Shown here: one piece after another, positions 513 through 17,751 of the stretch
How the letters are laid out: every line of letters starts with the position of its first letter
Numbering within the stretch: the stretch's first letter is position 1
Assembly (NCBI GenBank): GCA_037443365.1
Contig: JBBIOM010000036.1
Span: 1-17,751, forward strand
Origin: Armatimonadota bacterium
Lineage (GTDB): Bacteria; Sysuimicrobiota; Sysuimicrobiia; Sysuimicrobiales; Humicultoraceae
Reading direction: 5' to 3'
DNA length: 17,751 nucleotides
Notes under the pieces: generated by a model
Told to the model about the DNA's origin: nothing
Seen by the model: the letters and a program-made list of their open reading frames with translations, nothing else
The model's database searches: none
Position numbers and translations under genes: made by a program

Positions 513-526
513 GAGTGCCACCTCCT

Positions 527-2901: not shown

Positions 2902-3235
2902 CGTCGGCGTCCTCCCGCGTGTAGTAACGATGCGGCGCTCCCTCGGGATGGGCATTGGGATAGCGCGTACCTATGTAGTGTCGGTCGAGTGCCCGCGCAA
3001 GATCCCGCATCTGCCCGCTTACCGCAAGGTCACTCGGGAGAGACTCGAGCAAGCCCAGAACGGAGTGCCCCCGGGCCTCGGCACCGAGTCTCTGGAACAG
3101 GGCCTTGACCGCCTTCTCGGCCGCCTGCTGTGAAGCGAAGCAGGCCCACTCGTAGTATCCAGCCTCTAGCGCATGCCGGGCATGCTGAAGGTCACGTTCG
3201 GCCTGACTGAACCAGTCCTCGTGCCGCGCCGGCAT
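2837..3235 (-). CDS. HEPN domain protein (COG2250-like), MNT-paired putative toxin
   Basis: W..QAERDL..A......YEWACFASQQAAEKAVKA...GHS...LDRHYIGTRYPNAH pattern of MNT-associated HEPN proteins. ATG at 3235 with GGGAGG 8 nt upstream, 132 aa (track start 3277 is over-extended). Confidence 0.92.
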   Translation of the reverse strand: MPARHEDWFSQAERDLQHARHALEAGYYEWACFASQQAAEKAVKALFQRLGAEARGHSVLGLLESLPSDLAVSGQMRDLARALDRHYIGTRYPNAHPEGAPHRYYTREDADVAIRAAEDILRFCAGHFSRPA

Positions 3236-3350
3236 GGCGCCACCCTCCCGCATCGCCCCGCGCCCAAGATCCGGCAAACCGGGTTACCCACTAAGCTTCG
3301 CCTTCCCGAAGGTGCTTCCTCCAGAGACAGGCGCCTCCGCAGGTCAATAC

Positions 3351-4754: not shown

Positions 4755-5911
4755 GGCGTCCTCGGGGATGCGTCGCGCATTGGGCGCGCTGTCGCGGAGA
4801 GCGCGCGCTCGTAGACCGCCGCGGTCTGCGCCAGCATCCTCTCCTCGGTGAACCGCTCGAGCGCCCTGCGCCTGCCTGCCTCTCCCATGCGCTGGCGGAG
4901 TTCGGAATCACCCAGCAGCCGGGCCAGCGCCAGCGCGAGCGCGTCGGGATCCCCGGCCGGCACGAGAAGACCAGTCTCTCCGTGCACCACCGCCTCCGAG
5001 ACACCCCCTGCATCAGTGGCCACGACGGGCAGGCCGCTCATCATTGCTTCAATCACGGAGAGCGGCATTCCCTCCCAGCGGCTGGACAGCACGAAAACGT
5101 CCGCCATAGAGAGCAGCGCGGGCACGTCCTGGCGCGTGCCGAGCAGCGTGACACGCCCGCCCAGCCCTGACCCCTGCACCAGGGCTTCGACCTGCTCCCG
5201 CATGGGACCGTCGCCCACCAGCAGGAGGCGGCGATCCGCGCCGAGTTGCGTCCAGGCCTTGACGAGCGTGATCGGGTCCTTGGGCTCCTTGAGCCTGCTG
5301 ACCATGACGGCCGTGCAAGGTCTGCCGGTCCCTGCTCCGTCCTCTTGCACCGGGGCGCGCGCAAGCCAGGGATCAGGGGCGATGCCGTTGGGAATCACCT
5401 CGAGGCGCGTGGGCGGGCCTATCCCAACCCGGAGCGCTGCCTCCCGGTCACGCTGTGAGACGCAGATGATGGTTGTTGTGAGTCGAGCGGCCACCTTCTC
5501 TGCCAGCGCAAGGAGCATGCGTACCGGTGGGGGCCACCATGGTCCGGCAAACGGCCATCCATGGGCCGTGAAGAGCACTGCGGGAGTCCCGGCTAGCCTC
5601 GCGGCCATCCTCCCCAGCAGCCCTGCCTTGGTGCTGTGACAGTGCACCAGGGCGAACCGCTCGCTGCGCATCCAGCGTGCGAGCCGCACGAGCGTGGCAA
5701 GGTCGGCAAGCGGGCTGGGCGCACGGACAAGACGCGGGATCTCAACAACGCGGATGCCCTCCTGGCGGAGACGCCCCACGAGCGGCCCTCCCGGGCCGCA
5801 TGCCACGGTGACATCGTAGAGGCCCCGGAGGCCCTGAGCCAGCGCAAGGACGTTTGCCTGGGCCCCGCCCCAGTCAGACAGGGTGATCAGCATCAGTATC
5901 CGGTGAACCAC
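4751..5911 (-). CDS. Glycosyltransferase family 4 (GT-B, retaining)
   Basis: WGGAQ, VHCHSTKAG, TAHG, VIPNGI, SRLKEPKD, and SRWEGMPLSVIEAM (EX7E motif). GTG start with GGAG 7 nt upstream, overlapping the GT2 3' end. Confidence 0.95.
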   Translation of the reverse strand: MVHRILMLITLSDWGGAQANVLALAQGLRGLYDVTVACGPGGPLVGRLRQEGIRVVEIPRLVRAPSPLADLATLVRLARWMRSERFALVHCHSTKAGLLGRMAARLAGTPAVLFTAHGWPFAGPWWPPPVRMLLALAEKVAARLTTTIICVSQRDREAALRVGIGPPTRLEVIPNGIAPDPWLARAPVQEDGAGTGRPCTAVMVSRLKEPKDPITLVKAWTQLGADRRLLLVGDGPMREQVEALVQGSGLGGRVTLLGTRQDVPALLSMADVFVLSSRWEGMPLSVIEAMMSGLPVVATDAGGVSEAVVHGETGLLVPAGDPDALALALARLLGDSELRQRMGEAGRRRALERFTEERMLAQTAAVYERALSATARPMRDASPRTP

Positions 5912-6666
5912 TCCAGCGCTCCGAAGGCCGCCACGCCCAGCAGCGTGGGAACCAGCCCGAGACGCGCGCCCGCGGGAAGGCCCAGGCGCTGGATCGCCAT
6001 GCGTTGGAACTCCAGCTTCGTGCGCAGTCTGTGGCTGCGGGATCCGGATCGCGACAAGCTATTCGGCCGGAGCCGCCTTATTATCACCAGGGGCTCAGCC
6101 AGGTTCGCGACGGGGTAGGCGGCCGCCATTTGGACCAGGAGGTGGTAGTCCTCGAAGCGGGTATCCGCATACCCCCCGCATGCCTCCATCGCGGAACGGC
6201 GCATCATCATCGAAATGTGCACAAAGGGATTACCCCAGGCCATGGCGCGGCGAATCGCACCGTCCGAGGTGGGAACCCGGAGCAGCCGCTCGCGACCATG
6301 CTCATCCCGCAGATATGCGCTCGATCCGACAGCCGCAATTGCAGGATGAGCATCGAGAAACGCCACCTGCCGACTGCATCGTTCAGGAAGCCAGAGGTCG
6401 TCCGCGTCGAGGATGGCGATCAACCCGTGCCTCGCCGACGCGATGCCCTTGTTCAGGGCGGCGGCCCGGCCGATGCGGGCCTCGCGGAGAACCCGAACAC
6501 GCGGATCCCCAACTGCCTCGGCCAGATCCGCGGTCCTGTCGGCGGACCCGTCGTCCACAACGATGACCTCGCAATCAGCATGCGTCTGTGCAAGGACGCT
6601 GGCGATTGCCTCACAAATGAGGTCCTCCTCGTTGTAGGCGGTGATGACCGCGGTCACGCCGGGCAA
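5893..6666 (-). CDS. Glycosyltransferase family 2 (GT-A)
   Basis: VTAVITAYNEE, VIVVDDGSAD, AALNKG, AILDADD (DxD), FEDYHL. Start reassigned from track 6774 to TTG at 6666, 6 nt after GAGGAG and just downstream of the upstream gene's TGA (6679-6677); 257 aa. Confidence 0.92.
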   Translation of the reverse strand: MPGVTAVITAYNEEDLICEAIASVLAQTHADCEVIVVDDGSADRTADLAEAVGDPRVRVLREARIGRAAALNKGIASARHGLIAILDADDLWLPERCSRQVAFLDAHPAIAAVGSSAYLRDEHGRERLLRVPTSDGAIRRAMAWGNPFVHISMMMRRSAMEACGGYADTRFEDYHLLVQMAAAYPVANLAEPLVIIRRLRPNSLSRSGSRSHRLRTKLEFQRMAIQRLGLPAGARLGLVPTLLGVAAFGALEWFTGY

Positions 6667-6676
6667 TCTGATCTCC

Positions 6677-7951
6677 TCATGCCAGCCCAGCGGGCGATGC
6701 CGGACCGGCGCATCGTCTGTGCCAGCAGGCCATTGCGAGGGCGATCCACAGGTGCCGCCAGTGCAGGCTGTCAACTACGAGCGAGTCCACAAGTTGACCC
6801 GCGAGAACGGCCAGAGCCGTGCCACCTCCCGGCTCGACGCCCACGAAGTGCATTGCAACAAGCGCGGCGAAGAGCACGAGCGCCGGCAGCCCGTTCTCGC
6901 TCAGGATACGCAGGTAGAGGCTGTGGGCGGCGTAGCCGTACGCGGCCTCAAACTGCCCCGGGCCTATGCCTAGCACCCGCTCGGGAAGAAGACCGCCGGT
7001 CAGTGCCTTATGCTGCACCTCGAACCTCGTGCTGTCGTAGCTTTGAAGCGCGGCCCTACCAACAAGGGCAGGGGCGAGATCGTGCGCGAGGACGAATCCC
7101 CCGACCACCGCCAGCCCCAGAGCCAGCGTAAGGGCGCCGCGGCGCACCTGCGCATACTCGCGCCTGCGCAGGGCAATGACCGCCATGATCGCCAGCGTGA
7201 CCGCTGCTGCCAGGACCGCTCCCCGCGAGAAACTCATGACGAGGCCGAGCAGCAGCAGCGCCGCAGAGAGCATCCAGCCGACCTGCCCCCCGACCATGGC
7301 CCGCTCCACGGACCATGCCAGGGGCAGGACAAGGAAAGCCCCGAGGACGTTTGGGTCTTTGAATGTGCCCTTCCAGCGAGGGCCTCTGTGGTATAGCAGG
7401 TGTTGCAGCCGCGGCACACGGTAGAACGCCACGAGCGTGAGCGCGGTTGTTGCCAGCGCAGCGACGACGATGCCGGTAGTGACAGCCTGCCGGGTATCCT
7501 GGCGCCGCAGCCCTGCCACAGCGAGATAGAGCACGGCCAGGTACCCGGTGATTGCCACGTACCTTATCGCCGCTTGAAGATCACCGGCCTGCGCCACCGA
7601 AGCGACAGAGAGCGTCAAGAACGCCACCAGGACCCAGAACCGCGTGTCGGTCTTGATCTGGAAGTGCCGTCCTGCCAGGCCGGCGACCAGCACCACGGGG
7701 ACCAGCACATCGAAGGGCGCCGGCTCGATCCGCACTACGGCAATGGTCGAGAAAGCGGCAAGGAGGAAGGCGCGGTAGTCCGCCAGGGCCCATGCAAGGT
7801 ACAGCGGGAGCCCCGATAGGGTGAGGACAACCACTCCCTGAGGGGGGAGCAGCCGGGCGATGGCGGTCGCGGTCACCGCCAGAAGATGCGTGACGGCAGC
7901 GCAGGCGAGCAGGCGCCTGTATCGCCCGCATATCGCCTGCAGAGCGGTCAC
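6677..7951 (-). CDS. O-antigen ligase / Wzy polymerase family membrane protein
   Basis: Polytopic hydrophobic protein with RWKGTFKDPNVLG, SFSRGA, LGIGPGQF, AHSLYLRILSENG and DSLHWRHLW. Start reassigned from 8020 to GTG at 7951 (AGGAGG 5 nt upstream), which removes the overlap with PMM/PGM; 424 aa. Confidence 0.88.
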   Translation of the reverse strand: MTALQAICGRYRRLLACAAVTHLLAVTATAIARLLPPQGVVVLTLSGLPLYLAWALADYRAFLLAAFSTIAVVRIEPAPFDVLVPVVLVAGLAGRHFQIKTDTRFWVLVAFLTLSVASVAQAGDLQAAIRYVAITGYLAVLYLAVAGLRRQDTRQAVTTGIVVAALATTALTLVAFYRVPRLQHLLYHRGPRWKGTFKDPNVLGAFLVLPLAWSVERAMVGGQVGWMLSAALLLLGLVMSFSRGAVLAAAVTLAIMAVIALRRREYAQVRRGALTLALGLAVVGGFVLAHDLAPALVGRAALQSYDSTRFEVQHKALTGGLLPERVLGIGPGQFEAAYGYAAHSLYLRILSENGLPALVLFAALVAMHFVGVEPGGGTALAVLAGQLVDSLVVDSLHWRHLWIALAMACWHRRCAGPASPAGLA

Positions 7952-7970
7952 CGTCGCCTCCTGGCAGGCC

Positions 7971-9347
7971 CTACCAAGCCACCTGGCCCACTTCGGGAAA
8001 GCGTGAGAGCACCCCCGCAATCACCTGCTTGATCCTAGCCAGGCCGGAGGGGGTCGCCGCCTCCGCCCGCACCACCAGGGCCGGCTGCGTGTTACTGGCC
8101 CGCACGAGGCCCCAACCATCATCGAACAGCACGCGCGCGCCATCCACATCGACTACCTCGTGGTCGAGCTTGAACGCCTCGACCACCGATGCCACGACAT
8201 CGAACTTGCGCGCGTCGGGGCACGCCACGCGCACCTCGGGCGTCACCGGGTATCTTGGCACGTCGGAAGTGAGCACCGATAGCGGGAGATCGGACTGCGA
8301 GAGAATCCGCAGCAGACGCCCTGCGGCGTAGAGCGCGTCGTCGAAACCATAGTACTCGTCCGCGAAGAACATGTGCCCCGACATCTCGCCGGTGAAGACC
8401 GCGCCGATCTCGCGCATCTTGGCCTTGATCAGCGAGTGGCCCGTGCGGTAGAAGAACGGCTTCCCCCCCAGGCGCCTGACCTCGTCCACAAGCGCCTGCG
8501 AGCACTTCACCTCGACGATCACGTCGGCCCCAGGATGCCGCGGCAGGATCTCGCGCCAGTAGAGGACCATCAGGAGATCACCCCAGAGGATCTCGCCCTG
8601 ATCGTCCACGACCCCTATCCGGTCGCCATCGCCGTCCACCCCGATCCCCAGGTCGCACCGCTCGCGGCGCACCAGCGCGATCAGATCGGACAGGTTGCGC
8701 GGATCCACCGGGTCCGGATGGTGATGCGGGAAGCTGGGGTCGGAATCGCAGTAGATCGGCACGACCTCCACGCCCCACGCGGCCAGCACCTGGGGGGCGA
8801 TGAGGCTGGCCGTACCGTTTCCGCAGTCGAGCGCCACGCGCAGGCGCCGGGGGCCCAGGCGGATCTTCTCTTGCAACGTCTCCATGTAGGCCGGGACGAT
8901 CGCGCGCGGCTGGACGCGGCCCTGGCCGATGACAAACGGCCCGGTCTCGGCCCGGCGCCGCACGGCCTGTATCTGCTCCCCGTGCAGCGTCCCGAACCCG
9001 CCGGCCAGTTTGAAGCCGTTGAACTCGGACGGGTTGTGGCTGGCCGTCACCATCACCCCGCCATCTATGTCCCAGTGCACGCGCGCGAAGTAGAACGTGG
9101 GCGTGATGACGGTTCCGATCCGGACCACATCGCACCCTGAATCGGCAAGGCCCTCGGCCGCGCCCGCCGCCAGCGCTGGGGAGTGCGCGCGGTTGTCCGC
9201 TCCCAGCACCACCGGGCTTCCGGACAGGTTCCGGTCGGCCACGTAAGCCCGGGCGATTCTCGCGGCGATCTCGGGGGTCAGGTCGGTGCCGACCACGCCG
9301 CGGATGTCGTACTCGCGGAAGATCTCGGGATTGATGACGGGCTCCAC
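7971..9347 (-). CDS. manB: Phosphomannomutase/phosphoglucomutase (AlgC/ManB-like)
   Basis: IFREYDIRG, catalytic TASHNP, metal-binding DGDGDR, sugar-binding GEMSGH, phosphate-binding RASNT. GTG start with GGGGAG 8 nt upstream. Confidence 0.96.
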   Translation of the reverse strand: MEPVINPEIFREYDIRGVVGTDLTPEIAARIARAYVADRNLSGSPVVLGADNRAHSPALAAGAAEGLADSGCDVVRIGTVITPTFYFARVHWDIDGGVMVTASHNPSEFNGFKLAGGFGTLHGEQIQAVRRRAETGPFVIGQGRVQPRAIVPAYMETLQEKIRLGPRRLRVALDCGNGTASLIAPQVLAAWGVEVVPIYCDSDPSFPHHHPDPVDPRNLSDLIALVRRERCDLGIGVDGDGDRIGVVDDQGEILWGDLLMVLYWREILPRHPGADVIVEVKCSQALVDEVRRLGGKPFFYRTGHSLIKAKMREIGAVFTGEMSGHMFFADEYYGFDDALYAAGRLLRILSQSDLPLSVLTSDVPRYPVTPEVRVACPDARKFDVVASVVEAFKLDHEVVDVDGARVLFDDGWGLVRASNTQPALVVRAEAATPSGLARIKQVIAGVLSRFPEVGQVAW

Positions 9348-9349
9348 GC

Positions 9350-10900
9350 CTAGAGCTCCCCGGGGCGAGGCGGCGCGTCCTCCGGCAGCACCGGACCCGG
9401 CCGGGTGGTGCGCGGGACCATGCCCCGGCGCTCGGTGATGCCCACGAACCCGAACTCAATTGAGAACTCGTTGCGCATCTGACGATAGCGAGCCACGACA
9501 TCCACGCAGTCCCGGATCAGGCGCAGCGTGTAGTCAACGTCGTCAAAGGCCGACAGGCGAAGGTTGTAGGATGCGGAGGCGCCGGCCTCCAGCGACGGCG
9601 TTGCGACAACCATGAAGGACGCCGTCAGCTTCGTCTCGGGAACGACGGTGTTGTGGGCGACCCCGGCCGATAGGCGGAAGCGGTCCGGCACGGTGCGCGT
9701 GACGCTCAGGCCCAGCGTGCTGGCCGGATCCACAACATCAATGCTAAGCGGCGTGCCCCCATGCACCGCCACGTAGAGGTAGCGAAGCGAGGTTGTCGTG
9801 TAGCGATCGAGACGGTAGTTCAGCGCCGCGCCCAGGGTTGTCACGGTGCGGGTCGTTCCCGTTCCGTACACCGAGACGCGCGCCGCGCCGCGCGCGGCAA
9901 AGGTCAGGCCCGGCGCGACGCGCAGGCGTTCGGTCTCGACGGCAAGCTCGCCGTCGAGACGCGAGGTGGCAACGCCCGAGGCAATCTCGCCGTACCATCC
10001 GGCCGCGGCGGACAGTGACCAGGACAGCGGCGCCGGGCCGATGCGGGCAGGGCGCGTTGTCATTCCGATCTCGGCCACGTCGTAGCGCAGCCCGCTGTAG
10101 GCCTGGCGGTCATCAACCAGTTGCGTCCTGCCCAGCTGCAGGGTCGCTGTGAAGGCCGGCCCTTCCCAGGCCTGGGTAAGCAGCGGCGCGATTCCGCTGA
10201 TCGTGCCGTACTTGAGGTAGAGACGCCCGCGTCCCGATCCCATCCCCACTGGAATCCGGTAGTCCGCCCAGAAGCCGTCGAGGCTGTTGTATCCCAGGCC
10301 GGGGAGGATCGTCCCCTCCACCCCGGGACGCAACGAGAGGATGTAGCGAGGGAAGGTCAGCAGCCGGCGGTTGCGCAGGTACAGCGTGGCGTGATAGGCC
10401 ACGATCTCCCGGTCGGGAATCAGCTCGATGCGCCGCGCGGTGACGTGGTAGAAGGGGCGGCGGGGATCGCAGTTGGTCACGAACCCCTCGAAGCAGACGA
10501 AGCGATCCGCCGTGAAGTCCAATCGGTCCCCGCGCACGTAGACGCGGCGATCGCGATCCACAATCCCTTCTATGGGTTCGAACCGCCCCTCATCGGTGCG
10601 GGCGTCGTAGGTGAGCGTGCGGCCTCGCAGTTCGTGGCCCCGTGCATCCACCATCCGCACATTCCCGGTGGCCACGATGATCTGCGTGCGCAGATCGTAG
10701 CGCGCGCTGTCGGCGAACAGGCGATACCGCCGTAGCGTCACGCGGACGTTGCCCGAGGCCACGACGACCTGGCCCGCGGAGTCGTAGACGATGCTGTCGG
10801 CCTCCACGGTCACCGGAGCCGGCTGGGCGCCCGCGGTCCCGGCGCAGGCCAGGATCACGGAAAGCACGGCGACCACAACATGCCGCACGCTGCGCCTCAC
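9350..10900 (-). CDS. lptD: LptD/OstA-like LPS-assembly outer-membrane protein (short form)
   Basis: Signal peptide MRRSVRHVVVAVLSVILACAGTAGA|QP. OstA jelly-roll repeats (VEADSIVYD..ASGNV, LFADSARYD..ATGNV). FVTNCDPRRPFYHVTARRI resembles the LptD 'FTTC..P.W...A..I' motif. Amphipathic beta strands follow, ending FSIEFGF. Best start is GTG 10900 (GGAGG 8 nt upstream), 516 aa; ATG 10933 is an alternative; track start 11095 rejected. Confidence 0.8.
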   Translation of the reverse strand: MRRSVRHVVVAVLSVILACAGTAGAQPAPVTVEADSIVYDSAGQVVVASGNVRVTLRRYRLFADSARYDLRTQIIVATGNVRMVDARGHELRGRTLTYDARTDEGRFEPIEGIVDRDRRVYVRGDRLDFTADRFVCFEGFVTNCDPRRPFYHVTARRIELIPDREIVAYHATLYLRNRRLLTFPRYILSLRPGVEGTILPGLGYNSLDGFWADYRIPVGMGSGRGRLYLKYGTISGIAPLLTQAWEGPAFTATLQLGRTQLVDDRQAYSGLRYDVAEIGMTTRPARIGPAPLSWSLSAAAGWYGEIASGVATSRLDGELAVETERLRVAPGLTFAARGAARVSVYGTGTTRTVTTLGAALNYRLDRYTTTSLRYLYVAVHGGTPLSIDVVDPASTLGLSVTRTVPDRFRLSAGVAHNTVVPETKLTASFMVVATPSLEAGASASYNLRLSAFDDVDYTLRLIRDCVDVVARYRQMRNEFSIEFGFVGITERRGMVPRTTRPGPVLPEDAPPRPGEL

Positions 10901-10940
10901 ACCATGCGCCTCCGACCGCTGTTCGTTCGCCATTCCTCCA

Positions 10941-12608
10941 CTATTCCTCCGCGCCGGGCGGCTTCCCTGCGTCGTTCCAGTTGGCCACCAGGAGCAGTCT
11001 GGCCGGACTGATGAAGAGCTGTACCGGAGGCGGGACGAGCACGCGCGACAGTGTCTCGAAGCGTTCCTCGGGCACAACCAACAGCACCCGCTCACGGCGC
11101 CACAGGTCCGCCACCTGCCGGGCGTCCGTCGCGACCAGCACAGGCTCGTCGAGGTAGAAGCGCACGAAGTTGAGTCCGTCTCCGGCGCGCCCGAAGAGGA
11201 TCACGCGATCGCTCTCATCCGCAAGCGGGGCGGCCGCCGTGGAGATCTCGCGCCACGGAGCCAGATGCGCGGCGTTCGCCATGATCCCGATCTCGAACGA
11301 AGCGAAGGCCAGAAGCGATCCGGCCGCTGCCAGCGCCACCGCCGCCGCTCCTCGGCCGCGCAACGCGGCCAGGCCGAGCGCGACCAGCCCGGCGGCAAGC
11401 GCAACCACGAACATGCCCGCCACGCCAACCCATGGCGCGCGCTCGACCGGGAACTGCGCCCAGAGAAACCAGAATCCGGCTGCGGCCAGCGCCGGGGCCG
11501 GGAGCAGGGCGGCCCAGCCGACCCGGCGCAGGCGCCCGGGCCTGTCGAAGAGGGTCGCGGCGGCGCACCCGGCCAGGATTGCCGCCGGCGGGAAGCAGGG
11601 CAGGAGGTACCGGGAAACCTTGTCTCCTGAGGAGAGCGAGAGGGTCACGAAGATCGCGAGGAACCAGACAGCGACGACTCTCATGCCAGGCGAGGCATCG
11701 CGCCACAGGCGGCGCGGGCCTGCCGACACCGCCGCCAGCAGCGGAGACCAGGGCAGCATCCCGATCAGGAGAAGCGGCAGATAGGCGAAGATTGAGAGCC
11801 AGTAGGGCGGAGGCGTGGAGATGGCCGGCGCGAAGTACCGCCCTATCCCAAGCGTGCCCGACGTGACGAAGGTCCTGACGAACTGCTCTCCTCCCCGTGC
11901 GATTCCAACCGCGAACCAGGGCACTGCCAGCGCCGCGAAGACCGCGACGGCCAACACCGCGTGTCCGAGCAGCGCGCGCCCCGCGTGCGGCAGCGCCGGG
12001 CGCACCGCGACAAGCGCCGCGAGCACCGCCACACCGAATAGACCGACCCCGGGCACGCCGCGTGTGAGCGCGGCGAGCGCCGCGCTCGCGGCCGCGACCA
12101 GGACCCAGCGCACCGCGCCGCCATCTATGTATCGCACCACCCCGTACATGCCCAGCGTCAGGAAGAACGTGAGAGGCAGATCCTGCTGGGGCACGGTGGC
12201 CTGATAGAGGAACTGCGCCGAGGTGCCAAGCACAAGCGATGCCAGCAGCCCTGCCTCGTGGGATGCGCCGGCCGCGCGCGCGGTCCTGTACGTAAGCGCA
12301 ACGAGCGCCACTGCCATGACCAGTTGCCAGAGGCGCAGCGTCAGGTCCGAGACACCCAGCAGCCGGAAGGAAAGCGCCATCAGCCAGAAAGTGAGAGGGG
12401 GCTTGTCCACGAACCAGCCCGGATAGTGCATGGTAACCCAGTCCCCGGTGGCGAGGATGTTAGCGGCAATCCGGCCGTAGAGTGGGGCGTCGCCGTCGAG
12501 ATGGGGCAAGGGGGCCGCGGCAAGCACTGTCGCGCCTGCCAGGAATAGCAGCGCGAGCCAGAGACGGGCGCGTACAGAAGCAGGATCGGGTGGCAGCGGG
12601 ATGTTCAT
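10941..12608 (-). CDS. ArnT-like polyprenyl-phosphate-sugar-dependent glycosyltransferase (GT-C, GT83/GT39 family)
   Basis: LDGDAPLYGRIAANILATGDWVT...DKPPLTFWLMALSFRLLG, LPWSPLL, DKVSRYLLPCFPPAAIL. Many transmembrane segments and a soluble C-terminal domain. No clear SD before ATG 12608. Confidence 0.9.
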   Translation of the reverse strand: MNIPLPPDPASVRARLWLALLFLAGATVLAAAPLPHLDGDAPLYGRIAANILATGDWVTMHYPGWFVDKPPLTFWLMALSFRLLGVSDLTLRLWQLVMAVALVALTYRTARAAGASHEAGLLASLVLGTSAQFLYQATVPQQDLPLTFFLTLGMYGVVRYIDGGAVRWVLVAAASAALAALTRGVPGVGLFGVAVLAALVAVRPALPHAGRALLGHAVLAVAVFAALAVPWFAVGIARGGEQFVRTFVTSGTLGIGRYFAPAISTPPPYWLSIFAYLPLLLIGMLPWSPLLAAVSAGPRRLWRDASPGMRVVAVWFLAIFVTLSLSSGDKVSRYLLPCFPPAAILAGCAAATLFDRPGRLRRVGWAALLPAPALAAAGFWFLWAQFPVERAPWVGVAGMFVVALAAGLVALGLAALRGRGAAAVALAAAGSLLAFASFEIGIMANAAHLAPWREISTAAAPLADESDRVILFGRAGDGLNFVRFYLDEPVLVATDARQVADLWRRERVLLVVPEERFETLSRVLVPPPVQLFISPARLLLVANWNDAGKPPGAEE

Positions 12609-12666
12609 CGTGTACAGGTCTCGATTCGGCGGGTGGGGCTGGCGGCCCTGTAGGCGACCGGTGAAA

Positions 12667-12696
12667 TTGCCGCGACGCCCCCTTGGACACTATAAT
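12667..12696 (+). promoter_or_regulatory. Putative sigma70-type promoter for the rightward operon
   Basis: TTGCCG (12667-12672), 18 nt spacer, perfect TATAAT (12691-12696). It lies in the only divergent intergenic gap of a very GC-rich window. Confidence 0.7.
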
Positions 12697-12720
12697 GAAG
12701 CGTCGTGCGCGCGATGACAA
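12689..12720 (-). promoter_or_regulatory. Putative sigma70-type promoter for the leftward operon, overlapping the + strand -10
   Basis: Minus strand reads TTGTCA (12720-12715), 17 nt, CATTATAGT. This gives CATTAT at 17-nt spacing or TATAGT (12694-12689) at 20-nt spacing. Confidence 0.5.
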
Positions 12721-13931
12721 ACCACTTTCCTGCCCGCACCCTGATCATCGTCGGCAACAGCCCTGGCGAGGTAGCGGGGTGGGCCGTGCCCCTCGCCGCT
12801 GAGGCCCGCAGGATGGCGCAGGCCGGCGTGCCGTTCGTGGAGACGGTGCTCTGCCTGCCACCGTGCCAGTTCGCCAGCGGGCAGGAGGAGGCAGCAGCAC
12901 ACGCGGCCGGTGTGTTCGACCGGGTGCTGAATCCCGGCGCGACCCTGCGGCTTGCACTCGGGCTCCCTGGATGGACCCCTGCGGCGACGCCAGTGGTGCT
13001 GCATGTCGGCGGCGACTTCTGGTTCTCCCGACGCCTGGCCCGCCGGTGGCGTGCCAGCGCCTTCGCCTTCGTCGAGCGCGCGCACATCGCGCGCTCGCAC
13101 AGGGGATACAACCGGGTCTTCGTCCCCACGCCGGCGCTGCGGGAGCGGCTCGTGGATCTCGGCGTCCCCTTCGAGAAGATCGAGGTCACCGGCGATCCGA
13201 TCCAGGACGCGGTGCTCGAGGACCGTACCGCCCGCGAGACCGGTGACGGTGATGCCGATTACCCGCGAATCGCGCTTCTGGCCGGTAGTCGCGACAGCGT
13301 CTTCTCCGCTGTGTTCCCATTCTGGGTCAGAACCGGGGCGGCCCTGCGTGCACGGGCGCCCGAGGCCCGGCTGCTGGCGGTGATCTCACCGTTCGTGTCA
13401 CCCTCGGTGAGGGAACATCTGCTGGCCCGATACCAGTCCGGTCTTGATGCCGCCGGGATCGAGGTCTGCTGCGGCGGCCGTCCCTGCTTGCGGGGTGCAG
13501 ACCTGGCGTTGACGATTCCGGGCACCAACACGCTGGAGCTGGCGCTGATGCGCATTCCCACCCTGGTCGTCCTCCCGTTCGGTCTGGCCCCGCAGATCCC
13601 GGTGGAGGGCGCGATTGAGTGGCTCACGCGCGTGCCGCGAATCGGGCTGGCGTTCAAGCTCGCCCTGGCGCGCAGGTACATCAGCCGCAGGCCCTACCTG
13701 GCGCTGCCCAACATGCGAGCCAGGCGCCTGGTAATGCCCGAACTCGTGGGCGACGTGACGCCCGAGCAGGTGGCCGAAGAAGGGGCCAGGCTGATCCGCG
13801 ATCGCGCCGCCCGGCAGGGGCTCGCAGAGGCGCTGGAGGCGATCCCGTTCGAGCCCGGTGCATCGCGCCGCATCCTGGACGCGATCGCACCCGACGGTGG
13901 CGCGGCCGCGCCAGGCGGAGCCGGCGAGTGA
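12705..13931 (+). CDS. Lipid-A-disaccharide synthase (LpxB)-related GT-B glycosyltransferase, divergent
   Basis: The C-terminal half matches LpxB motifs: VTGDP, IALLAGSR (cf. LLPGSR), ADLALTIPGTNTLELALMRIPTLVV (cf. ASGT..LE....P.VV), YLALPN....VMPEL. The N-terminus has GNSPGE instead of AGE.SGD. Start is GTG 12705 or ATG 12714; neither has an SD. Confidence 0.75.
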   Translation: MRAMTNHFPARTLIIVGNSPGEVAGWAVPLAAEARRMAQAGVPFVETVLCLPPCQFASGQEEAAAHAAGVFDRVLNPGATLRLALGLPGWTPAATPVVLHVGGDFWFSRRLARRWRASAFAFVERAHIARSHRGYNRVFVPTPALRERLVDLGVPFEKIEVTGDPIQDAVLEDRTARETGDGDADYPRIALLAGSRDSVFSAVFPFWVRTGAALRARAPEARLLAVISPFVSPSVREHLLARYQSGLDAAGIEVCCGGRPCLRGADLALTIPGTNTLELALMRIPTLVVLPFGLAPQIPVEGAIEWLTRVPRIGLAFKLALARRYISRRPYLALPNMRARRLVMPELVGDVTPEQVAEEGARLIRDRAARQGLAEALEAIPFEPGASRRILDAIAPDGGAAAPGGAGE

Positions 13932-15700
13932 GCGACCTGCGCGGCCTGGCCGCCCGGGTGGCGCCCTACCGCCTGCAGATCGCGGGAGCCCTGGCAGCGG
14001 TGCTGGTGGCCACCGGGGCCAACCTCGCGGTTCCCAGGTACACGGGCTTCCTGATAGACCAGATCGTGGCCACGCGCTCCTTCTCCACCCTCAATCGCGG
14101 GGCCGGCATAATACTGCTCCTGTTCGCGCTCAACAGCCTGGCGCTCTTCGCCCAGATCTACCTGATGTACTACCTGGCGCATCGCATCGTGGCCGACCTG
14201 CGCCAGGACCTGTTCGCGCGCATCCAGCGCTGGTCGCTCGACCGGTTCGCGGTCTGGCAGAGCGGCGACGCGATCTCCCGGAGCCTCCAGGACACGCAGG
14301 TGGTGCAGACCGAGATGCTGATGGGAGCGGTGGACGCGATCTCCACCGCGCTCATGTTCGCGGGCATCGTGGGCATGCTGCTGTGGATCGACTGGCAGCT
14401 CGCGCTCGCGATCGCGGTGGTCATCCCGCTCGTCGGCGCGATCGCGCGTGCATTTGGCAGGGAGATACAGGGCACGGCCACGCGTGCCCAGGAGCACGTG
14501 GCGGGCCTGGCAGGCCTGATCCGCGAGGCGTTCTCCGGTGCGCGTGTGATCCGCGCGTTCTCGCGCGAGGATCGGGAGATCCGGCGGTTCCGTGACGAGA
14601 ACGAGCTGACGTTCGGGGCGAACCTCCGCATCGGCCGGATGGTGGCGCTACAGGTGCCCGTGGTCAGCTTCATGACGGCGTTCGGCGTCGTAGTCGTCCT
14701 GTGGCTGGGAGGGCAGTGGGTGACATCGGGCCGGCTCACGATCGGGACCCTCGTCGCGTTCCTGGGGTACGTGGGCCTGGCCGTCCAGCCGGCGGTAAGC
14801 CTCACGCGCCACTACGCCGGGTTACGGCAGGCGATGGGCGCCTTCCGACGGATCCGCGCCCTGCTCGATGAGCCCCCGGGCCTGCAGGAGAGCCCGGGCG
14901 CGGCGGCGCTACCGCCGATCGCGGGCCGCGTCCGCTTCGACAACGTCTCGTTCTCGTACGAACCTGATCAGTGGGCCCTGCGCAACCTCTCGCTGGATAT
15001 CTCACCGGGTGAGCGCGTTGCGCTCGTAGGGCTGAGCGGTGCAGGTAAGACGACGCTCGTGAACCTGATCGCCCGCTTCTACGATCCCGCCGAGGGGCGC
15101 ATCGAGATCGATGGATGGGACCTGCGCCGTGTGACGATCCGGTCGCTGCGGCGGCAGATCGGGCTGGTCCCGCAGGAGACGGTCCTGTTCCGCGGCACAG
15201 TCCACGACAACATCGCGTACGCGCGACCCGACGCGCAGTTCGACGAGGTCGTGGCCGCGGCGAAGGCCGCCAACGCGCACGATTTCATCATGTCGTTGGC
15301 GGACGGGTATCGGACCCTGCTGGGTGAGGACGGCCTGCAGCTCTCGGGTGGACAGCGCCAGCGCATCGCCATAGCGCGCGCGCTGCTGTGTGACCCACGC
15401 CTCCTGATCTTCGACGAGGCCACGTCGGCCCTGGACAGCGAGTCCGAGAACCTGATCCAGGACGCGCTCAACCGGGCGACACGCGGGCGCACGACATTCA
15501 TCATCGCGCACCGTCTGTCCACCGTGCGGGGGGCGGACCGGATAGTCGTGCTGGACCAGGGCGCGGTCGCAGAGGACGGCCGGCACGAGGACCTGCTGAC
15601 GCGGGGCGGAACATACGCCAGGCTTCTCCGGCTGCAGTGGGTGGACGCGGCTCCGGCCGACGTGCCGGCCGCGCCGCCCTCTCCACCGTCCGCAACGTGA
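13928..15700 (+). CDS. msbA: ABC exporter, fused permease/ATPase, MsbA-like lipid A flippase
   Basis: N-terminal TM domain plus Walker A GLSGAGKT, Q-loop VPQE, signature LSGGQRQR, Walker B IFDEATSALD, H-loop IAHRLST. True start is GTG 13928 (GTGA overlap with upstream stop, GGAG 7 nt upstream), 590 aa. The msbA name rests on gene context. Confidence 0.9.
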   Translation: MSDLRGLAARVAPYRLQIAGALAAVLVATGANLAVPRYTGFLIDQIVATRSFSTLNRGAGIILLLFALNSLALFAQIYLMYYLAHRIVADLRQDLFARIQRWSLDRFAVWQSGDAISRSLQDTQVVQTEMLMGAVDAISTALMFAGIVGMLLWIDWQLALAIAVVIPLVGAIARAFGREIQGTATRAQEHVAGLAGLIREAFSGARVIRAFSREDREIRRFRDENELTFGANLRIGRMVALQVPVVSFMTAFGVVVVLWLGGQWVTSGRLTIGTLVAFLGYVGLAVQPAVSLTRHYAGLRQAMGAFRRIRALLDEPPGLQESPGAAALPPIAGRVRFDNVSFSYEPDQWALRNLSLDISPGERVALVGLSGAGKTTLVNLIARFYDPAEGRIEIDGWDLRRVTIRSLRRQIGLVPQETVLFRGTVHDNIAYARPDAQFDEVVAAAKAANAHDFIMSLADGYRTLLGEDGLQLSGGQRQRIAIARALLCDPRLLIFDEATSALDSESENLIQDALNRATRGRTTFIIAHRLSTVRGADRIVVLDQGAVAEDGRHEDLLTRGGTYARLLRLQWVDAAPADVPAAPPSPPSAT

Positions 15701-15701
15701 G

Positions 15702-16631
15702 ATGCCGCAGCCGGCGCACGTCCCGTGCCTCAGCGTCGTCGTGCCAACCTACAACGATGCACCCGTGCTGCGACTGTGCCTGGCGCACCTGACCGCGCAG
15801 ACGCTCGCTCCTGCCGCCTTCGAGGTAGTGGTTGTAGACGACGGCTCCACCGACGATACACCCCGGGTGGTGGCCGAGGCAGCCGCCGGGCGGGTCCGGA
15901 TCCGGGGCGTCCGGCTCGACCGCAACCTGGGCAGGAGCGCGGCGCGCAACGCCGGGATCCGGGCCGCCGGGGCGCCATTGATCGTCTTCATTGACAGCGA
16001 CGTGCTGGTGCTCCCCGACTTCCTGGCGCGCCACATGGAGATCCACCGTGCGGCCGGCTCTCAGGTGGTGGGGCGCGGGCCGGTCGTGGTCATTCCCTCG
16101 CCAGACATCCCTGCGCGGCGTCCTCGCATCGGGATCTCGCCGGCGTACATGGACACGGCCAACGCGTCGGTCCCGCGGCAGGTCCTCGTGGACGCGGGGA
16201 TGTTCGACGAGGGGTTCAGGGTCTACGGATGGGAGGATTTCGATCTCGGGCTGCGCATCAAGGCCCGCGGCATCCCCAGGGTGTTCTCGCCTGCGGCCCT
16301 GGCGTACCATATCCAGCAGCCGCCGACGCTGGAGTCCCTCGACCTGCATCTGGCCAAGGAGGAAGATCGGGCGCGCACGGCCCTGTACCTGCTGGCGAAG
16401 CACCCGGGGAGTGAGACACTGATGCTCGTACAGGACACGCGGCCGCAGAGGGCGCTGCACTTCCTGCTGGGCGGGGCCGGGCTGATCGCGCCAGCGGCCG
16501 CCCTGCGCCTGGCGCGGTGGCTGCGGCGACGCAACCTGCACACGCTGGCGTTCCTCGTGACGCGCGGGATCCTGAACCGCCACTACCTCGCCGCGTTGGA
16601 CCGGTTCCGCGCGGCCGCCGAGGGGCGGTAA
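15702..16631 (+). CDS. Glycosyltransferase family 2
   Basis: LSVVVPTYND, VVVVDDGSTD, AARNAG, VFIDSD (DxD), FDEGFRVYGWEDFDLGLR. Starts 1 nt after the ABC transporter stop. Confidence 0.94.
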   Translation: MPQPAHVPCLSVVVPTYNDAPVLRLCLAHLTAQTLAPAAFEVVVVDDGSTDDTPRVVAEAAAGRVRIRGVRLDRNLGRSAARNAGIRAAGAPLIVFIDSDVLVLPDFLARHMEIHRAAGSQVVGRGPVVVIPSPDIPARRPRIGISPAYMDTANASVPRQVLVDAGMFDEGFRVYGWEDFDLGLRIKARGIPRVFSPAALAYHIQQPPTLESLDLHLAKEEDRARTALYLLAKHPGSETLMLVQDTRPQRALHFLLGGAGLIAPAAALRLARWLRRRNLHTLAFLVTRGILNRHYLAALDRFRAAAEGR

Positions 16632-16632
16632 C

Positions 16633-17751
16633 GTGGAGGCCTGGCGCTGGAGGGAGTTCCTGCTTCTGCTGACGGTGTTCGTCTTCTCCGCGGGCTTTGC
16701 CTCAGGAGGGTTCCTCCTGTTGCTTGTGCTGGCGGCCGGCGAGGTCATGGCAGGCGAGCCGCTGTGGCGCCGCACCCCGGTGGATACCGGCCTGCTCGGC
16801 CTGATGGCGGCGGTGGTCCTGTCAGGCCTGTGGTCAGAGTGGCGGGCGACGGCCTTGTGGTCGGCGGCCGCGTTCGGGCTCTGCGCAGCGATCACGCTGC
16901 GAGCGGTGGTGCTGGCGGTTCATCGTAGCCAGGCGTTTGCCCAGAGGTTCATCGAGACATGGGCCGCGGGAGGGGTGGCGGCAGGGGCGCTTTGCATTGC
17001 ATGGCTGGGGTCCGCGCCCGGCGCGCGGGCGCAGGTGTTCAACATGAACCCCAACGAGTTGGGCACGACCCTGGCGATCGCTGCGGTGCTGCTGCTGGGC
17101 CTGACGCTTGACGGGCCGCGACGCAAGCGTCTGTTCTGCCTGGCCGGCCTCGGCGTGGTGATGGTGGGCCTGGCGCTGACCTGGTCGCGCGGCGCCTGGC
17201 TGGCCGCCGCGGTGGGGGTGGCCGTGCTGCTCGCCCGGGTCGAGCGACCGCGACTATGGCCGGGCCTGCTCACAGCCGCGCTCGTCCTAGGCGCGGCTAT
17301 GCCCATGTTGGGGCCGCGCTGGGCCTGGCATGCCGGTCGCATCCAAGAGATCGCCGCCGCCGATGGCCCGTTCAGTCGCATCCCCATCTGGCGCCTGGTC
17401 CCAAAGATGGTCGCAGACCATCCGGTGCTGGGCACCGGACTCTCGACCTTCCAGTTCGTGTACGAGAGGTACAGACAGGGGACCACGGCGGTTCCGTACG
17501 CGCCGCTGGCGCACAACCTCTTCCTTCAGTTCGCCGCCGAGACCGGTGTGGTGGGCCTGGCGGCGCTGCTGTACTTCCTGACAGCAGGGGTTCTCAGCGT
17601 CGCCAGGTGGCATGTCAGGAGCCCCCCGGGCGAGCAGCGCTACCTGAGCGCGACCGTGCTCGCCTCGCTGGCAGCCCTGCTCGCCCACCAGATGGTGGAC
17701 GGCACCGTGCTGCGCGTGCACATATCCGTGGGACTCTTCGCCCTCGTGGCG
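16633..17751 (+). CDS. O-antigen ligase (WaaL-like) family protein, 3' end beyond the window
   Basis: Not in ORF track; translated by hand. GTG at 16633 (GAGGGG 7 nt upstream, 1 nt after GT2 stop), open for 373 codons to the edge. Hydrophobic, with NPNELG, LTWSRGAWLA, SRIPIW..MVADHPVLGTG..F and AHNLFLQFAAETGVVGL. Confidence 0.92.
   Translation, partial: MEAWRWREFLLLLTVFVFSAGFASGGFLLLLVLAAGEVMAGEPLWRRTPVDTGLLGLMAAVVLSGLWSEWRATALWSAAAFGLCAAITLRAVVLAVHRSQAFAQRFIETWAAGGVAAGALCIAWLGSAPGARAQVFNMNPNELGTTLAIAAVLLLGLTLDGPRRKRLFCLAGLGVVMVGLALTWSRGAWLAAAVGVAVLLARVERPRLWPGLLTAALVLGAAMPMLGPRWAWHAGRIQEIAAADGPFSRIPIWRLVPKMVADHPVLGTGLSTFQFVYERYRQGTTAVPYAPLAHNLFLQFAAETGVVGLAALLYFLTAGVLSVARWHVRSPPGEQRYLSATVLASLAALLAHQMVDGTVLRVHISVGLFALVA

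Follow-up and report, generated by a model that had tools for sequence, protein, structure and literature searches.

Putative Kdo-independent lipopolysaccharide assembly and export genes, with a candidate LpxB-related glycosyltransferase, in a CSP1-3 bacterium

The window analysed here, a stretch of 17,751 nt from an uncultured CSP1-3 (Sysuimicrobiota) bacterium, probably encodes the late-assembly and export part of the lipopolysaccharide (LPS) pathway of a diderm whose lipid A would be made without LpxK, Kdo or heptose; we put this reading at a little above 0.6. Kdo-less lipid A itself is already known. A four-enzyme pathway has been described from gene absence in Cyanobacteria and Dictyoglomi, and cyanobacterial LPS without Kdo, heptose and phosphate is covered in the same paper (Opiyo et al. 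2010, PMC3087551). The new point is a GT-B glycosyltransferase family related to LpxB. The searched literature names no enzyme that joins the core to lipid A in Kdo-less bacteria, among them the cyanobacteria with their globally abundant LPS. The locus offers a concrete candidate, an LpxB-like transferase in a conserved slot between lpxB and msbA. Orthologues are carried by cyanobacteria that can be grown and genetically manipulated, so testing the idea does not require CSP1-3 in culture. For CSP1-3/Sysuimicrobiota as such, our literature search returned no earlier account of the envelope; gene content suggests a diderm one, with a short LptD and lipid A made by a Kdo-free route.

Organization of the locus

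The followed-up part of the window (9350..17751) carries two divergent, close-set operons. The initial annotation had described six genes there, and all six were recovered on the claimed strands by ORFs and domain matches. The features of the window are the following.

527..8020, minus strand: O-antigen-like unit genes, an extension of the minus-strand run (Pfam matches), comprising the next seven entries
527-1513, minus strand: NAD epimerase/dehydratase (Pfam)
1514-2491, minus strand: sugar-1-P nucleotidyltransferase (Pfam)
2488-2955, minus strand: NTP_transf_2 protein (Pfam)
3351-4754, minus strand: Bac_transf phosphoglycosyl transferase (Pfam)
4751-5911, minus strand: GT4 (Pfam)
5893-6774, minus strand: O-antigen-cluster GT2 (Pfam)
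6677-8020, minus strand: second Wzy_C protein (Pfam)
7971..9347, minus strand: phosphomannomutase/phosphoglucomutase (PGM_PMM domains I-IV), 2 nt downstream of the lptD-like gene
9350..10933 (ORF 9350-11095), minus strand: short LptD-like outer-membrane protein, 527 aa (PF03968, AF2, Foldseek)
10941..12608, minus strand: ArnT-like GT-C glycosyltransferase (PMT_2 family), polytopic membrane protein, 555 aa (PF13231, PF02366)
12609..12713: divergent intergenic region with back-to-back sigma-70-like promoters, by consensus matches only
12720-12692, minus strand: promoter-like site TTGTCA-17-CATTAT
12667-12696, plus strand: promoter-like site TTGCCG-18-TATAAT
12714..13931 (ATG 12714; alternative GTG 12705), plus strand: GT-B glycosyltransferase of an unnamed LpxB-related family, 405 aa (profiles, AF2, tree)
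13928..15700, plus strand: MsbA-like homodimer-type ABC exporter, TMD plus NBD, 590 aa (PF00664 and PF00005)
15702..16631, plus strand: GT2 glycosyltransferase, 309 aa (PF00535, 106 bits)
16633..17751, running past the contig end, plus strand: O-antigen-ligase-like (Wzy_C) membrane protein (PF04932)

The tight coupling claimed for these genes is borne out by the spacing: 7 nt between arnT-like and lptD-like, a GTGA overlap joining the end of the GT-B gene to the start of the msbA-like gene, and gaps of 1 nt on either side of the GT2 gene (msbA-like/GT2 and GT2/waaL-like). The divergent gap measures 97-105 nt and contains two promoter-like sites placed back to back; the expectation from shuffles is 0.0. 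The annotated extent of the operons needed correction, as the minus-strand run continues beyond 9350 into the phosphomannomutase/phosphoglucomutase gene and the O-antigen-like cluster, and the plus-strand run is interrupted by the contig end. As had been stated, there is no lpxK, waaA, kds or heptose gene in the window. The system extends beyond the window, with the lpx and lpt genes on contig C14 and a TIGR03492 gene on contig C20. The guess that the DNA came from CSP1-3 agrees with the nearest named records, which are Sysuimicrobiota/CSP1-3 MAGs.

From family membership, gene context and co-occurrence, on which all the enzymatic assignments rest, we infer the following biochemistry. LpxA, LpxC, LpxD, LpxI and LpxB would make a tetra-acyl glucosamine disaccharide 1-phosphate. 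At the cytoplasmic face, the LpxB-like GT-B, having retained the UDP-binding and leaving-group residues of LpxB but with a different acceptor-side domain, would transfer a sugar from a UDP-sugar to this lipid and so fill the place of WaaA. A TIGR03492 paralogue, whose gene is probably just past the contig end, may perform a second such transfer, and the GT2 would lengthen the short core. The MsbA-like exporter would flip the core-bearing product. At the outer face of the inner membrane, the ArnT-like GT-C would add a sugar from a polyprenyl-phosphate donor, and the Wzy_C protein may ligate an undecaprenyl-linked glycan built by the neighbouring phosphoglycosyl transferase, GT4, GT2 and Wzy_C genes. 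The Lpt bridge would then deliver the molecule to the short LptD.

Lipid A, Kdo and heptose genes

Profile searches of the contigs of the window's own genome, which is 97.7% complete, recovered on C14 the order skp-lpxD-(unknown)-lpxC-fabZ-lpxA-lpxI-lpxB-lptC-lptA-lptB-lptF/G, with LpxB at 241 bits, LpxC at 286 bits and LpxI at 153 bits; this LptF/G gene is the only one found in the genome. No match was obtained there for LpxK (PF02606), for heptosyltransferases (GT9, PF01075) or for WaaA (PF04413), the WaaA search being positive in the E. coli, Caulobacter and Bacteroides controls. KdsA was not found in this genome: the best TIGR01362 match reached 114.7 bits (cut-off 314) and was rejected as a DAHP synthase (NF006421, 494 bits). 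The CTP_transf_3 matches resembling KdsB were rejected likewise, being IspDF, GlmU and MocA. The initial annotation had proposed a possibly Kdo-independent system on a lipid A-like anchor. Consistent with both parts of this, canonical waaA, kdsAB and lpxK did not turn up genome-wide, and lpxA, lpxC and lpxD were present together with lpxI and lpxB.

This gene content matches the four-enzyme pathway as set out in the part of PMC3087551 considered here: LpxA, LpxC, LpxD and LpxB remain, LpxK, WaaA and the late acyltransferase steps drop out, and the order lpxD-lpxC-fabZ-lpxA-lpxB is common to both. The present case differs in belonging to another phylum and in having an additional LpxI gene. That part of the paper names no enzyme acting after LpxB, whereas here the GT-B and TIGR03492 families track the pathway type. 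With the E. coli Raetz pathway (WaaA, LpxK, MsbA, LptB2FGC-A-DE), the logic of cytoplasmic lipid A-core assembly, ABC flipping, O-antigen ligation and an Lpt bridge to the LptD barrel would be shared; unlike in E. coli, LpxK, WaaA, KdsA, KdsB and heptosyltransferases were not found in our genome, and only a single LptF/G gene was recovered.

In a sample of 80 genomes of the phylum, the GT-B profile matched in 79 (best E<=1e-30 in 73) and LpxC in 77. WaaA gave no real match in these 80 genomes, two matches of about 21 bits falling within the GT-B gene. For LpxK, the matches in the sample all fell on the model's P-loop region and scored only 19-26 bits; one of them reaches the cut-off, and only when summed with in-frame neighbours.

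An LpxB-related GT-B family

The GT-B protein matches LpxB models only partially (PF02684, 35.6 bits; TIGR00215, 54.4 bits against a cut-off of 190.25), and the profile of its family matches E. coli LpxB with E 4.7e-18. Its AF2 model (pLDDT 90.5) has a GT-B fold. By sequence, the closest solved relative is LpxB (GT19; PDB 5W8N/5W8S/5W8X), with which it has this fold in common. In a tree, LpxB, TIGR03492 and the GT-B family form three separate clades (support 100, 100 and 99), so that the window protein falls outside the LpxB clade; when the tree is rooted on LpxB, TIGR03492 groups with the GT-B clade.

The residues involved in UDP binding and the leaving group are largely kept among 80 members of the clade (G199 in 79, S200 in 77, R201 in 76, T277 in 72 and E281 in 73), as is N316 (in all 80), and the window protein has all six, conserving LpxB's PGSR and GTxxxE motifs and its LPN asparagine. 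It differs from LpxB by an insert of about 25 aa ahead of the LPN motif and on the acceptor side. E15, S17 and D98 are named for LpxB catalysis, D98 as the predicted catalytic base, in the portion of PMC5785501 drawn on here. In the GT-B clade, E15 is N in 79 of 80 members, S17 is P in all 80 and D98 is never D; the window protein carries N, P and H at these positions, the N-domain being aligned with less certainty than the C-domain.

TIGR03492 ('lipid-A-disaccharide synthase-related protein', an NCBIfam hypothetical equivalog) is a further LpxB-like paralogue that shares clusters and genomes with the GT-B family. Its model (cut-off 219.2 bits) did not match the window GT-B at E<=0.1; the TIGR03492 member of the genome is a different gene (C20:1-1098, 255.3 bits), and in TIGR03492 the positions matching E281 and N316 are replaced. 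TIGR03492 also occurs in a control, Deinococcus radiodurans, which has no LpxC match.

An MsbA-like gene lies immediately downstream of the GT-B gene in 46 of 70 assessable loci. The order lpxB-GT-B-msbA was seen in Aminivibrio and a Bacillota MAG, and lpxA-GT-B-msbA in Meiothermus and Trueperaceae. Fusions were found of LpxB with GT-B (P0166, P0235) and of GT2 with GT-B in both orders (P0248, GT2::GT-B; P0268, GT-B::GT2), the window GT2 being 34% identical to the GT2 half of P0268 and 29% to that of P0248. A fusion seen in Synergistaceae joins a TIGR03492-like domain to LpxK (190.9 bits).

The family was also profiled against the absence of WaaA, as had been suggested. Among 61 Cyanobacteriota genomes, 40 have the GT-B, the same 40 have TIGR03492, 19 others have WaaA, two have neither and none has both. 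The 19 genomes with WaaA are without exception small (1.6-2.2 Mb). The 40/19 split probably goes back to a single ancient event or a few of them and should therefore not be counted as 59 independent observations. A second sample, of 27 GT-B-bearing genomes from several phyla (a non-random one, drawn from the 80 best GT-B loci), had LpxC in 27, WaaA in two and LpxK in two. In two Synergistaceae genomes, GT-B, WaaA and LpxK occur together in one cluster; the GT-B is thus not a strict substitute for WaaA.

Because of its separate clade, its placement between lpxB or lpxA and msbA, the fusions and the exclusion of WaaA in Cyanobacteriota, we regard the GT-B as a candidate lipid A glycosyltransferase replacing the Kdo step. 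The synteny in other phyla, the fusions and the cyanobacterial exclusion likewise lend comparative support to the earlier suggestion that the GT-B and the GT2 build an alternative core. A wider generalization is possible, although we hold it only tentatively and would sooner bet against it: the GT-B and its sister TIGR03492 might replace WaaA and LpxK in all Kdo-less LPS, glycosylating the disaccharide directly from UDP-sugars before the MsbA flip. Theirs might then be an ancient alternative route to the inner core in outer membranes of the Terrabacteria type, the Kdo route being the other branch. Its scope would then take in Cyanobacteria, CSP1-3, Eremiobacterota, some Deinococcota, diderm Bacillota and others.

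The MsbA-like exporter and the GT2

The exporter has the half-transporter architecture, PF00664 followed by PF00005, and is linked to lipid A genes: orthologous GT-B-msbA neighbours lie within lpx clusters at four loci in three phyla (Deinococcota, Synergistota and Bacillota). It stays below the equivalog cut-offs of both TIGR02204 (502 bits against 780) and TIGR02203, the MsbA model (470 against 602). Sav1866 (371.7 bits) and MsbA (367.1 bits) are its best two and near-equal matches among half-transporter structures. It is the sole homodimer-type exporter in the genome, where the only other full-length exporters are one adjacent pair on C35.

Other readings of the GT-B and of the operon

The GT-B, and perhaps TIGR03492, could instead decorate lipid A at the 4' or 1 position, the usual phosphate sites, with another enzyme such as the GT2 adding the first core sugar. 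We consider this unlikely, while recognizing that several observations fit it: LpxK and WaaA are jointly missing throughout the phylum sample and in 25 of the 27 genomes that have a GT-B, the fusion to LpxK in Synergistaceae links the TIGR03492 paralogue to the 4' position, and the coexistence of GT-B and WaaA in two genomes of that family suits a role other than Kdo replacement. Their mutual exclusion in Cyanobacteriota argues the other way, and the present data do not separate sugar positions. Less probable again is a role for the GT-B as an LpxB isozyme, which would make it a second synthase of the lipid A disaccharide, redundant with or specialised beside LpxB and perhaps using another acyl or diamino-sugar substrate. 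In Meiothermus (G013, G015) and Trueperaceae (G005-G007), the GT-B is the sole LpxB-like match, directly after lpxA, and therefore could act there as the disaccharide synthase; the retained R201, E281 and N316 of the C-domain and the family profile match to LpxB are also in line with an isozyme. The changed catalytic residues of the N-domain, the low TIGR00215 score and the clade of its own speak against it, as does the canonical LpxB that co-occurs in most other lineages, often adjacent or fused.

The plus-strand operon might finally be a run-of-the-mill module for exopolysaccharide, O-antigen or protein glycosylation, not directly connected to lipid A, whose exporter flips an undecaprenyl-linked glycan, as PglK does, or handles other cargo. 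In favour of this, the exporter is under the MsbA cut-offs and is also matched by HepA, glucan and PglK-type models, the top NCBIfam match of the GT2 is EpsD (153 bits, under the cut-off), and the remainder of the window is an O-antigen-like cluster. We nevertheless judge this reading very improbable. The GT-B-msbA pair sits inside lpx clusters in three other phyla, LpxB::GT-B fusions are known, all 27 GT-B genomes have LpxC, and the exporter is the only one of homodimer type available for the lipid A flipping that this genome requires. In addition, comparison of the match positions of both profiles placed the GT-B and the short LptD on the same contig, at most 2 kb apart, in 48 of the 80 phylum genomes. 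A lipid A-directed role for the operon remains our preferred reading.

The short LptD-like protein

The lptD-like ORF probably starts at M55 (position 10933), giving a 527-aa protein with a signal-peptide-like N-terminus, identical to the database protein P0101. It would consist of a signal peptide, an LptA/LptD_N beta-jellyroll and a smaller C-terminal beta-barrel. The jellyroll is matched by PF03968 (23.3 bits, cut-off 20.4). The LptD barrel model PF04453 did not match the window protein; the same model fired only in the E. coli and Caulobacter controls and failed in Synechococcus and Bacteroides. The AF2 model (pLDDT 88) is all-beta. Full-length LptD structures rank first when it is searched with Foldseek (5iv9_A, E 4.8e-20), with TM-scores of only 0.39-0.48, and a rough count from predicted secondary structure gives 18-22 barrel strands; the E. 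coli LptD barrel has 26. The N-terminal jellyroll and the predicted C-terminal barrel would be shared with the LptD of Proteobacteria, which provides the best structural matches (PDB 4q35, 5iv9, 8h1s), but those solved chains have 740-825 aa, and E. coli LptD is about 260 aa longer than the window protein.

No other jellyroll-plus-barrel gene was found in the genome. The short-LptD profile matched 74 of the 80 phylum genomes at E<=1e-30, some matches spanning the jellyroll part only. A congener (G048) has a second module, made up of an LptF/G, a fusion of LptC with OstA and an LptD-like protein that is longer, at some 700 aa. As this module is absent from the window's assembly, the short LptD may be a specialised paralogue, or the assembly may be missing a locus.

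The ArnT-like and Wzy_C proteins

The ArnT-like protein matches PF13231 (PMT_2) with 55.7 bits and PF02366 with 53.2 bits, and the ArnT equivalog model NF009784 with 83 bits over residues 43-356, well below its cut-off of 567; the assignment is established to the GT-C/PMT_2 superfamily only. A search of PDB sequences gave no match for it. The plus-strand Wzy_C protein matches PF04932 (62.5 bits) and the RfaL model with 16 bits (cut-off 277). Its relatives have 403-437 aa, and by comparison with L018 about 14 aa are missing from its C-terminal end. Judged by sequence, either Wzy_C protein of the window may be a ligase (WaaL) or a polymerase (Wzy). The ArnT-like and Wzy_C proteins belong to the superfamilies of ArnT (GT-C PMT_2) and WaaL (Wzy_C) and would be expected to act on the same membrane side, but lie far under the equivalog cut-offs. 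A paralogue of the ArnT-like gene adjoins lptF/G on C14.

Gene content and organization of the locus

The window is the whole 17,751-base contig C36 (GC 65-71%) of a 2.22 Mb genome in 69 contigs, 97.7% complete (G000). A non-canonical, possibly Kdo-independent LPS-like assembly and export system had been proposed at 9350..17751, built from six genes in two divergent groups. Family matches and coordinates bore out the six genes and their strands. The gene content of the region also stood, whereas gene starts and extent had to be corrected, the minus-strand run continuing past 9350. The corrected features are:

10941-12608, minus strand: ArnT-like GT-C (PMT_2, 55.7 bits)
ORF 9350-11095, minus strand, probable start ATG 10933: LptD-like gene, 527 aa with a signal-peptide-like N-terminus (hereafter short LptD; database entry P0101)
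12705/12714-13931, plus strand: LpxB-related glycosyltransferase with a partial LpxB match (hereafter GT-B)
13928-15700, plus strand: MsbA-like ABC exporter, overlapping the GT-B stop at GTGA
15702-16631, plus strand: GT2
16633 to contig end, plus strand: Wzy_C/O-antigen-ligase-like gene

The gap of 97-105 nt between the divergent operons carries two back-to-back promoter-like sites, compared to 0.0 expected from shuffled sequences. On the minus strand, the ArnT-like gene is separated by 7 nt from the LptD-like gene, which is followed after 2 nt by a phosphomannomutase gene and then by a second Wzy_C protein, GT2, GT4, a Bac_transf phosphoglycosyl transferase and sugar-nucleotide genes. Each operon thus contains one Wzy_C-domain protein (6677-8020, minus strand, and 16633-17751, plus strand), and the pair may comprise a polymerase and a ligase. 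Among the ORFs of the window none was recognised as a Wzx-type flippase, Rfam gave no match within the window at gathering thresholds, and a phmmer search of the PDB with the ArnT-like protein returned no match. Three ORFs were treated as spurious: 12605-13189 (minus strand), antisense to GT-B and matching no family, and 3234-4814 (plus strand) and 1-1215 (minus strand), which match no family and overlap real genes.

The plus-strand operon probably continues on another contig, C20. In relatives, the GT-B-msbA-GT2-waaL-like order leads on, in the same orientation, to a gene of TIGR03492 (the NCBIfam 'lipid-A-disaccharide synthase-related protein', an LpxB-like paralogue distinct from GT-B), sometimes with 1-2 GT2 or Wzy_C genes between. 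The TIGR03492 member of G000 lies at C20:1-1098 (plus strand; L017:1-1098; 255 bits for a cut-off of 219) and is cut by the contig start: C36 stops about 14 codons short of the Wzy_C gene end and C20 begins about 7 codons into TIGR03492. The end of C36 shares no sequence with the start of C20 or with any other contig end, so that the adjacency is deduced from synteny only; the gap expected on this basis would be about 70 bp, or would hold one additional GT2 gene.

A lipid A pathway without LpxK, WaaA and KdsAB

The lpx genes and most lpt genes lie on a third contig, C14, where a single strand carries skp, lpxD, a 593-aa conserved unknown, lpxC, fabZ, lpxA, lpxI, lpxB, lptC, lptA, lptB, lptF/G, a PMT_2 GT-C and a DUF3084 gene. 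The initial annotation would have been overturned by canonical waaA, kdsAB and lpxK elsewhere in the genome, or by the lack of lpxA, lpxC and lpxD. The latter three are all on C14, and none of the former was found in G000. For KdsA, the best look-alike proved to be a DAHP synthase (NF006421, 494 bits), and the CTP_transf_3 look-alikes of KdsB are IspDF, GlmU and MocA. No GT9 heptosyltransferase was found in G000 either.

The absence of WaaA and LpxK extends to the phylum, for which 80 genomes with a completeness of 80% or more, among them G000, were sampled. Of these, 77 have LpxC, and WaaA has no real match in any. The only hits to PF04413, the Kdo transferase N-domain, are marginal (about 21 bits; G096:C44:123914-124042 and G100:C152:1089-1268), and both fall inside the GT-B gene, at profile positions 121-178. 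All LpxK matches in the sample score 19-26 bits and are confined to the P-loop segment of the model; a single one attains the cut-off, and then only by summation with its neighbours in frame. Excluding two genomes flagged as unpublished (G041 and G046), LpxC is found in 75/78 and a real WaaA or LpxK match in 0/78. Incompleteness of the assembly therefore does not explain what is missing from G000.

The guess of a CSP1-3 bacterium was confirmed by the nearest named loci, which belong to 'Candidatus Fervidifonticultor' and 'Candidatus Sysuimicrobiota' MAGs (63-66% identity in GT-B); 'Armatimonadota'-labelled MAGs are among the other nearest loci. The name Sysuimicrobiota was proposed for CSP1-3 in PMC11604079, a study with CSP1-3 enrichment cultures. 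The main texts of two CSP1-3 papers contain no mention of lipopolysaccharide, outer membrane, diderm or lipid A. In Cyanobacteria and Dictyoglomi the pathway is reported to be limited to LpxA, C, D and B, with the genes clustered as lpxD-lpxC-fabZ-lpxA-lpxB, and cyanobacterial LPS is described there as devoid of Kdo, heptose and phosphate (Opiyo et al. 2010, PMC3087551). Since this four-enzyme pathway was reported in 2010, Kdo-independent LPS was already known, and CSP1-3 adds a new lineage to those that have it. We conclude that the module is real and conserved and serves the late assembly and export of LPS in a pathway free of Kdo and LpxK.

Two observations concern C14 itself. No Pfam or NCBIfam family matches the 593-aa ORF between lpxD and lpxC (C14:14419-16200, minus strand; L015). 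The ESM Atlas clusters closest to it (287, 69 and 55 members, for the most part with Armatimonadota labels) are annotated 'hypothetical protein', and the ORF is apparently a conserved gene of unknown function within the lipid A cluster. Directly after lptF/G, the only LptF/G gene found in G000, comes a second ArnT-like PMT_2 GT-C and then the DUF3084 protein (C14:5376-7832 and 4474-6234, both minus strand). This GT-C is 31% identical to that of the window, and both GT-C paralogues of G000 thus stand beside Lpt genes.

GT-B as a third LpxB-like family

GT-B is the most interesting element of the locus. Its AF2 model (pLDDT 90.5) has a plain GT-B fold for which Foldseek ranks UDP-GlcNAc 2-epimerases and MurG above LpxB; the fold alone therefore gives no family name, which comes from the sequence profile. 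The family profile matches E. coli LpxB with E 4.7e-18, in an alignment that takes in the LPN region as well as the motifs PGSR and GTxxxE. We then compared residues in 110 sequences aligned with E. coli LpxB, 80 of them from the GT-B clade, using the roles assigned in the LpxB structure paper (PMC5785501). Residues for UDP binding and leaving-group stabilisation are common to both families, being kept in 72-80 of the 80 members (G199 in 79, S200 in 77, R201 in 76, T277 in 72, E281 in 73, N316 in 80), whereas acceptor-side residues are changed: E15 is N in 79/80, S17 is P in 80/80 and D98 is never D.

A FastTree phylogeny of 11 LpxB, 19 TIGR03492 and 80 GT-B sequences gave three clean clades (support 100, 100 and 99). 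Membership of the cyanobacterial and Deinococcota homologues in TIGR03492 was ruled out by this tree and by a TIGR03492 search. Judged by profile and phylogeny, GT-B is a third LpxB-like family beside LpxB and TIGR03492. At E<=1e-30, its profile retrieves 487 cluster representatives out of 1.84 billion. Predicted proteins include fusions of canonical LpxB followed by GT-B (P0166 and P0235; 789 and 814 aa) and of GT2 with GT-B in both orders (P0248 and P0268; 739 and 717 aa), the GT2 halves of the latter being 29-34% identical to the GT2 of the window. In the open-access literature searched, no description of the GT-B family was found, searches for LpxB-like paralogues yielding only the LpxB structure paper and lpxB2 of Leptospira, and no enzyme was named as acting after LpxB in organisms of this kind.

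Distribution and neighbourhood of GT-B

Within the phylum sample, the GT-B profile matches 79/80 genomes at E<=0.001, G062 being the only one without a match, and the best match reaches E<=1e-30 in 73. In the remaining six (G029, G037, G054, G067, G069 and G073) it is no stronger than the matches of the profile to its LpxB and TIGR03492 paralogues, so that an orthologue is not shown there. GT-B and short LptD lie at most 2 kb apart on one contig in 48/80 genomes, G041 and G046 included (as read from the coordinates of the two profile searches), and 10-20 kb apart in phylum family f3. Beyond the phylum, an MsbA-like gene directly follows GT-B at 46 of the 70 loci with enough flank.

MsbA-like gene directly downstream of GT-B, by taxonomic label
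Deinococcota: 21/24
Sysuimicrobiota: 4/4
Bacillota: 5/10
Synergistota: 3/7
Aerophobota: 1/1
Cyanobacteriota: 0/3
Other labels and unnamed records: 12/21

Pfam scans placed GT-B inside lipid A clusters at four loci.

Lipid A clusters containing GT-B
Bacillota MAG: lpxC-fabZ-lpxA-lpxB-GT-B-msbA-...-lptC-TIGR03492-lptA-lptB-lptFG
Aminivibrio: lpxA-lptFG-lpxI-lpxB-GT-B-msbA-lpxK::TIGR03492-kdsA-kdsD-waaA-?-kdsB
Meiothermus taiwanensis DSM 14542 (L060:5849-12892): lpxD-lpxC-GFO/IDH/MocA oxidoreductase-fabZ-lpxA-GT-B-msbA
Trueperaceae MAG (L026:6026-12875): order much like that of Meiothermus, the oxidoreductase being named for Meiothermus only

The lpxK::TIGR03492 gene of the Aminivibrio sp. MAG (L081:7968-10250, plus strand) encodes a 760-aa fusion of LpxK (TIGR00682, 176.6 bits) and a TIGR03492-like domain (190.9 bits). 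In G019, another Synergistaceae genome, the frame containing the LpxK match is 825 aa long.

To compare GT-B with WaaA, 27 GT-B-bearing genomes with long contigs and a wide taxonomic spread were picked from the 80 best loci. All 27 have LpxC; WaaA was found in two, both Synergistaceae, and LpxK in the same two. Cyanobacteriota were sampled evenly over the phylum (61 genomes); Synechococcus elongatus, used as a control, matches TIGR03492.

GT-B, TIGR03492 and WaaA in 61 Cyanobacteriota genomes
GT-B and TIGR03492, no WaaA: 40
WaaA, neither GT-B nor TIGR03492: 19, all of 1.6-2.2 Mb
None of the three: 2
GT-B together with WaaA: 0

As the sampled genomes are related, this split may reflect one or few events and is to be read as a pattern, not as a statistic.

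We propose with moderate confidence that GT-B is a candidate lipid A glycosyltransferase, at the place held elsewhere by WaaA, with TIGR03492 as its constant companion. Confidence is kept at this level because Synergistaceae have GT-B together with WaaA, and because some Deinococcota have no LpxB-like gene other than GT-B: canonical LpxB has no match anywhere in the genomes of the Meiothermus and Trueperaceae loci, where GT-B thus occupies the lpxB place.

The MsbA-like exporter and the short LptD

Of the full-length ABC exporters in G000, the MsbA-like protein is the only one of homodimer type, the others being an adjacent pair on contig C35; from its sequence alone, the MsbA-like protein cannot be told from Sav1866-type exporters. 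For short LptD, the model (pLDDT 88) matched full-length LptD structures first (E 4.8e-20), with TM-scores of only 0.39-0.48. Its secondary structure gives an estimated 18-22 barrel strands, compared to 26 in solved LptD. PF04453, the LptD C-terminal domain, was uninformative since non-proteobacterial controls were also missed.

The short-LptD profile matches 74/80 phylum genomes at E<=1e-30, some by the jellyroll part only. Many phylum genomes have a second match to this jellyroll part, with similar ones in 30 or more, and the sole match in at least G029 and G037 is of the kind read as a longer paralogue. A second Lpt-like module, absent with its neighbours from the G000 assembly at DNA and protein level, was observed in the congener G048 (contig C19, L106:324-5157), where this longer paralogue, an LptD-like protein of about 700 aa, adjoins a second LptF/G gene and a 572-aa LptC-OstA fusion ORF.
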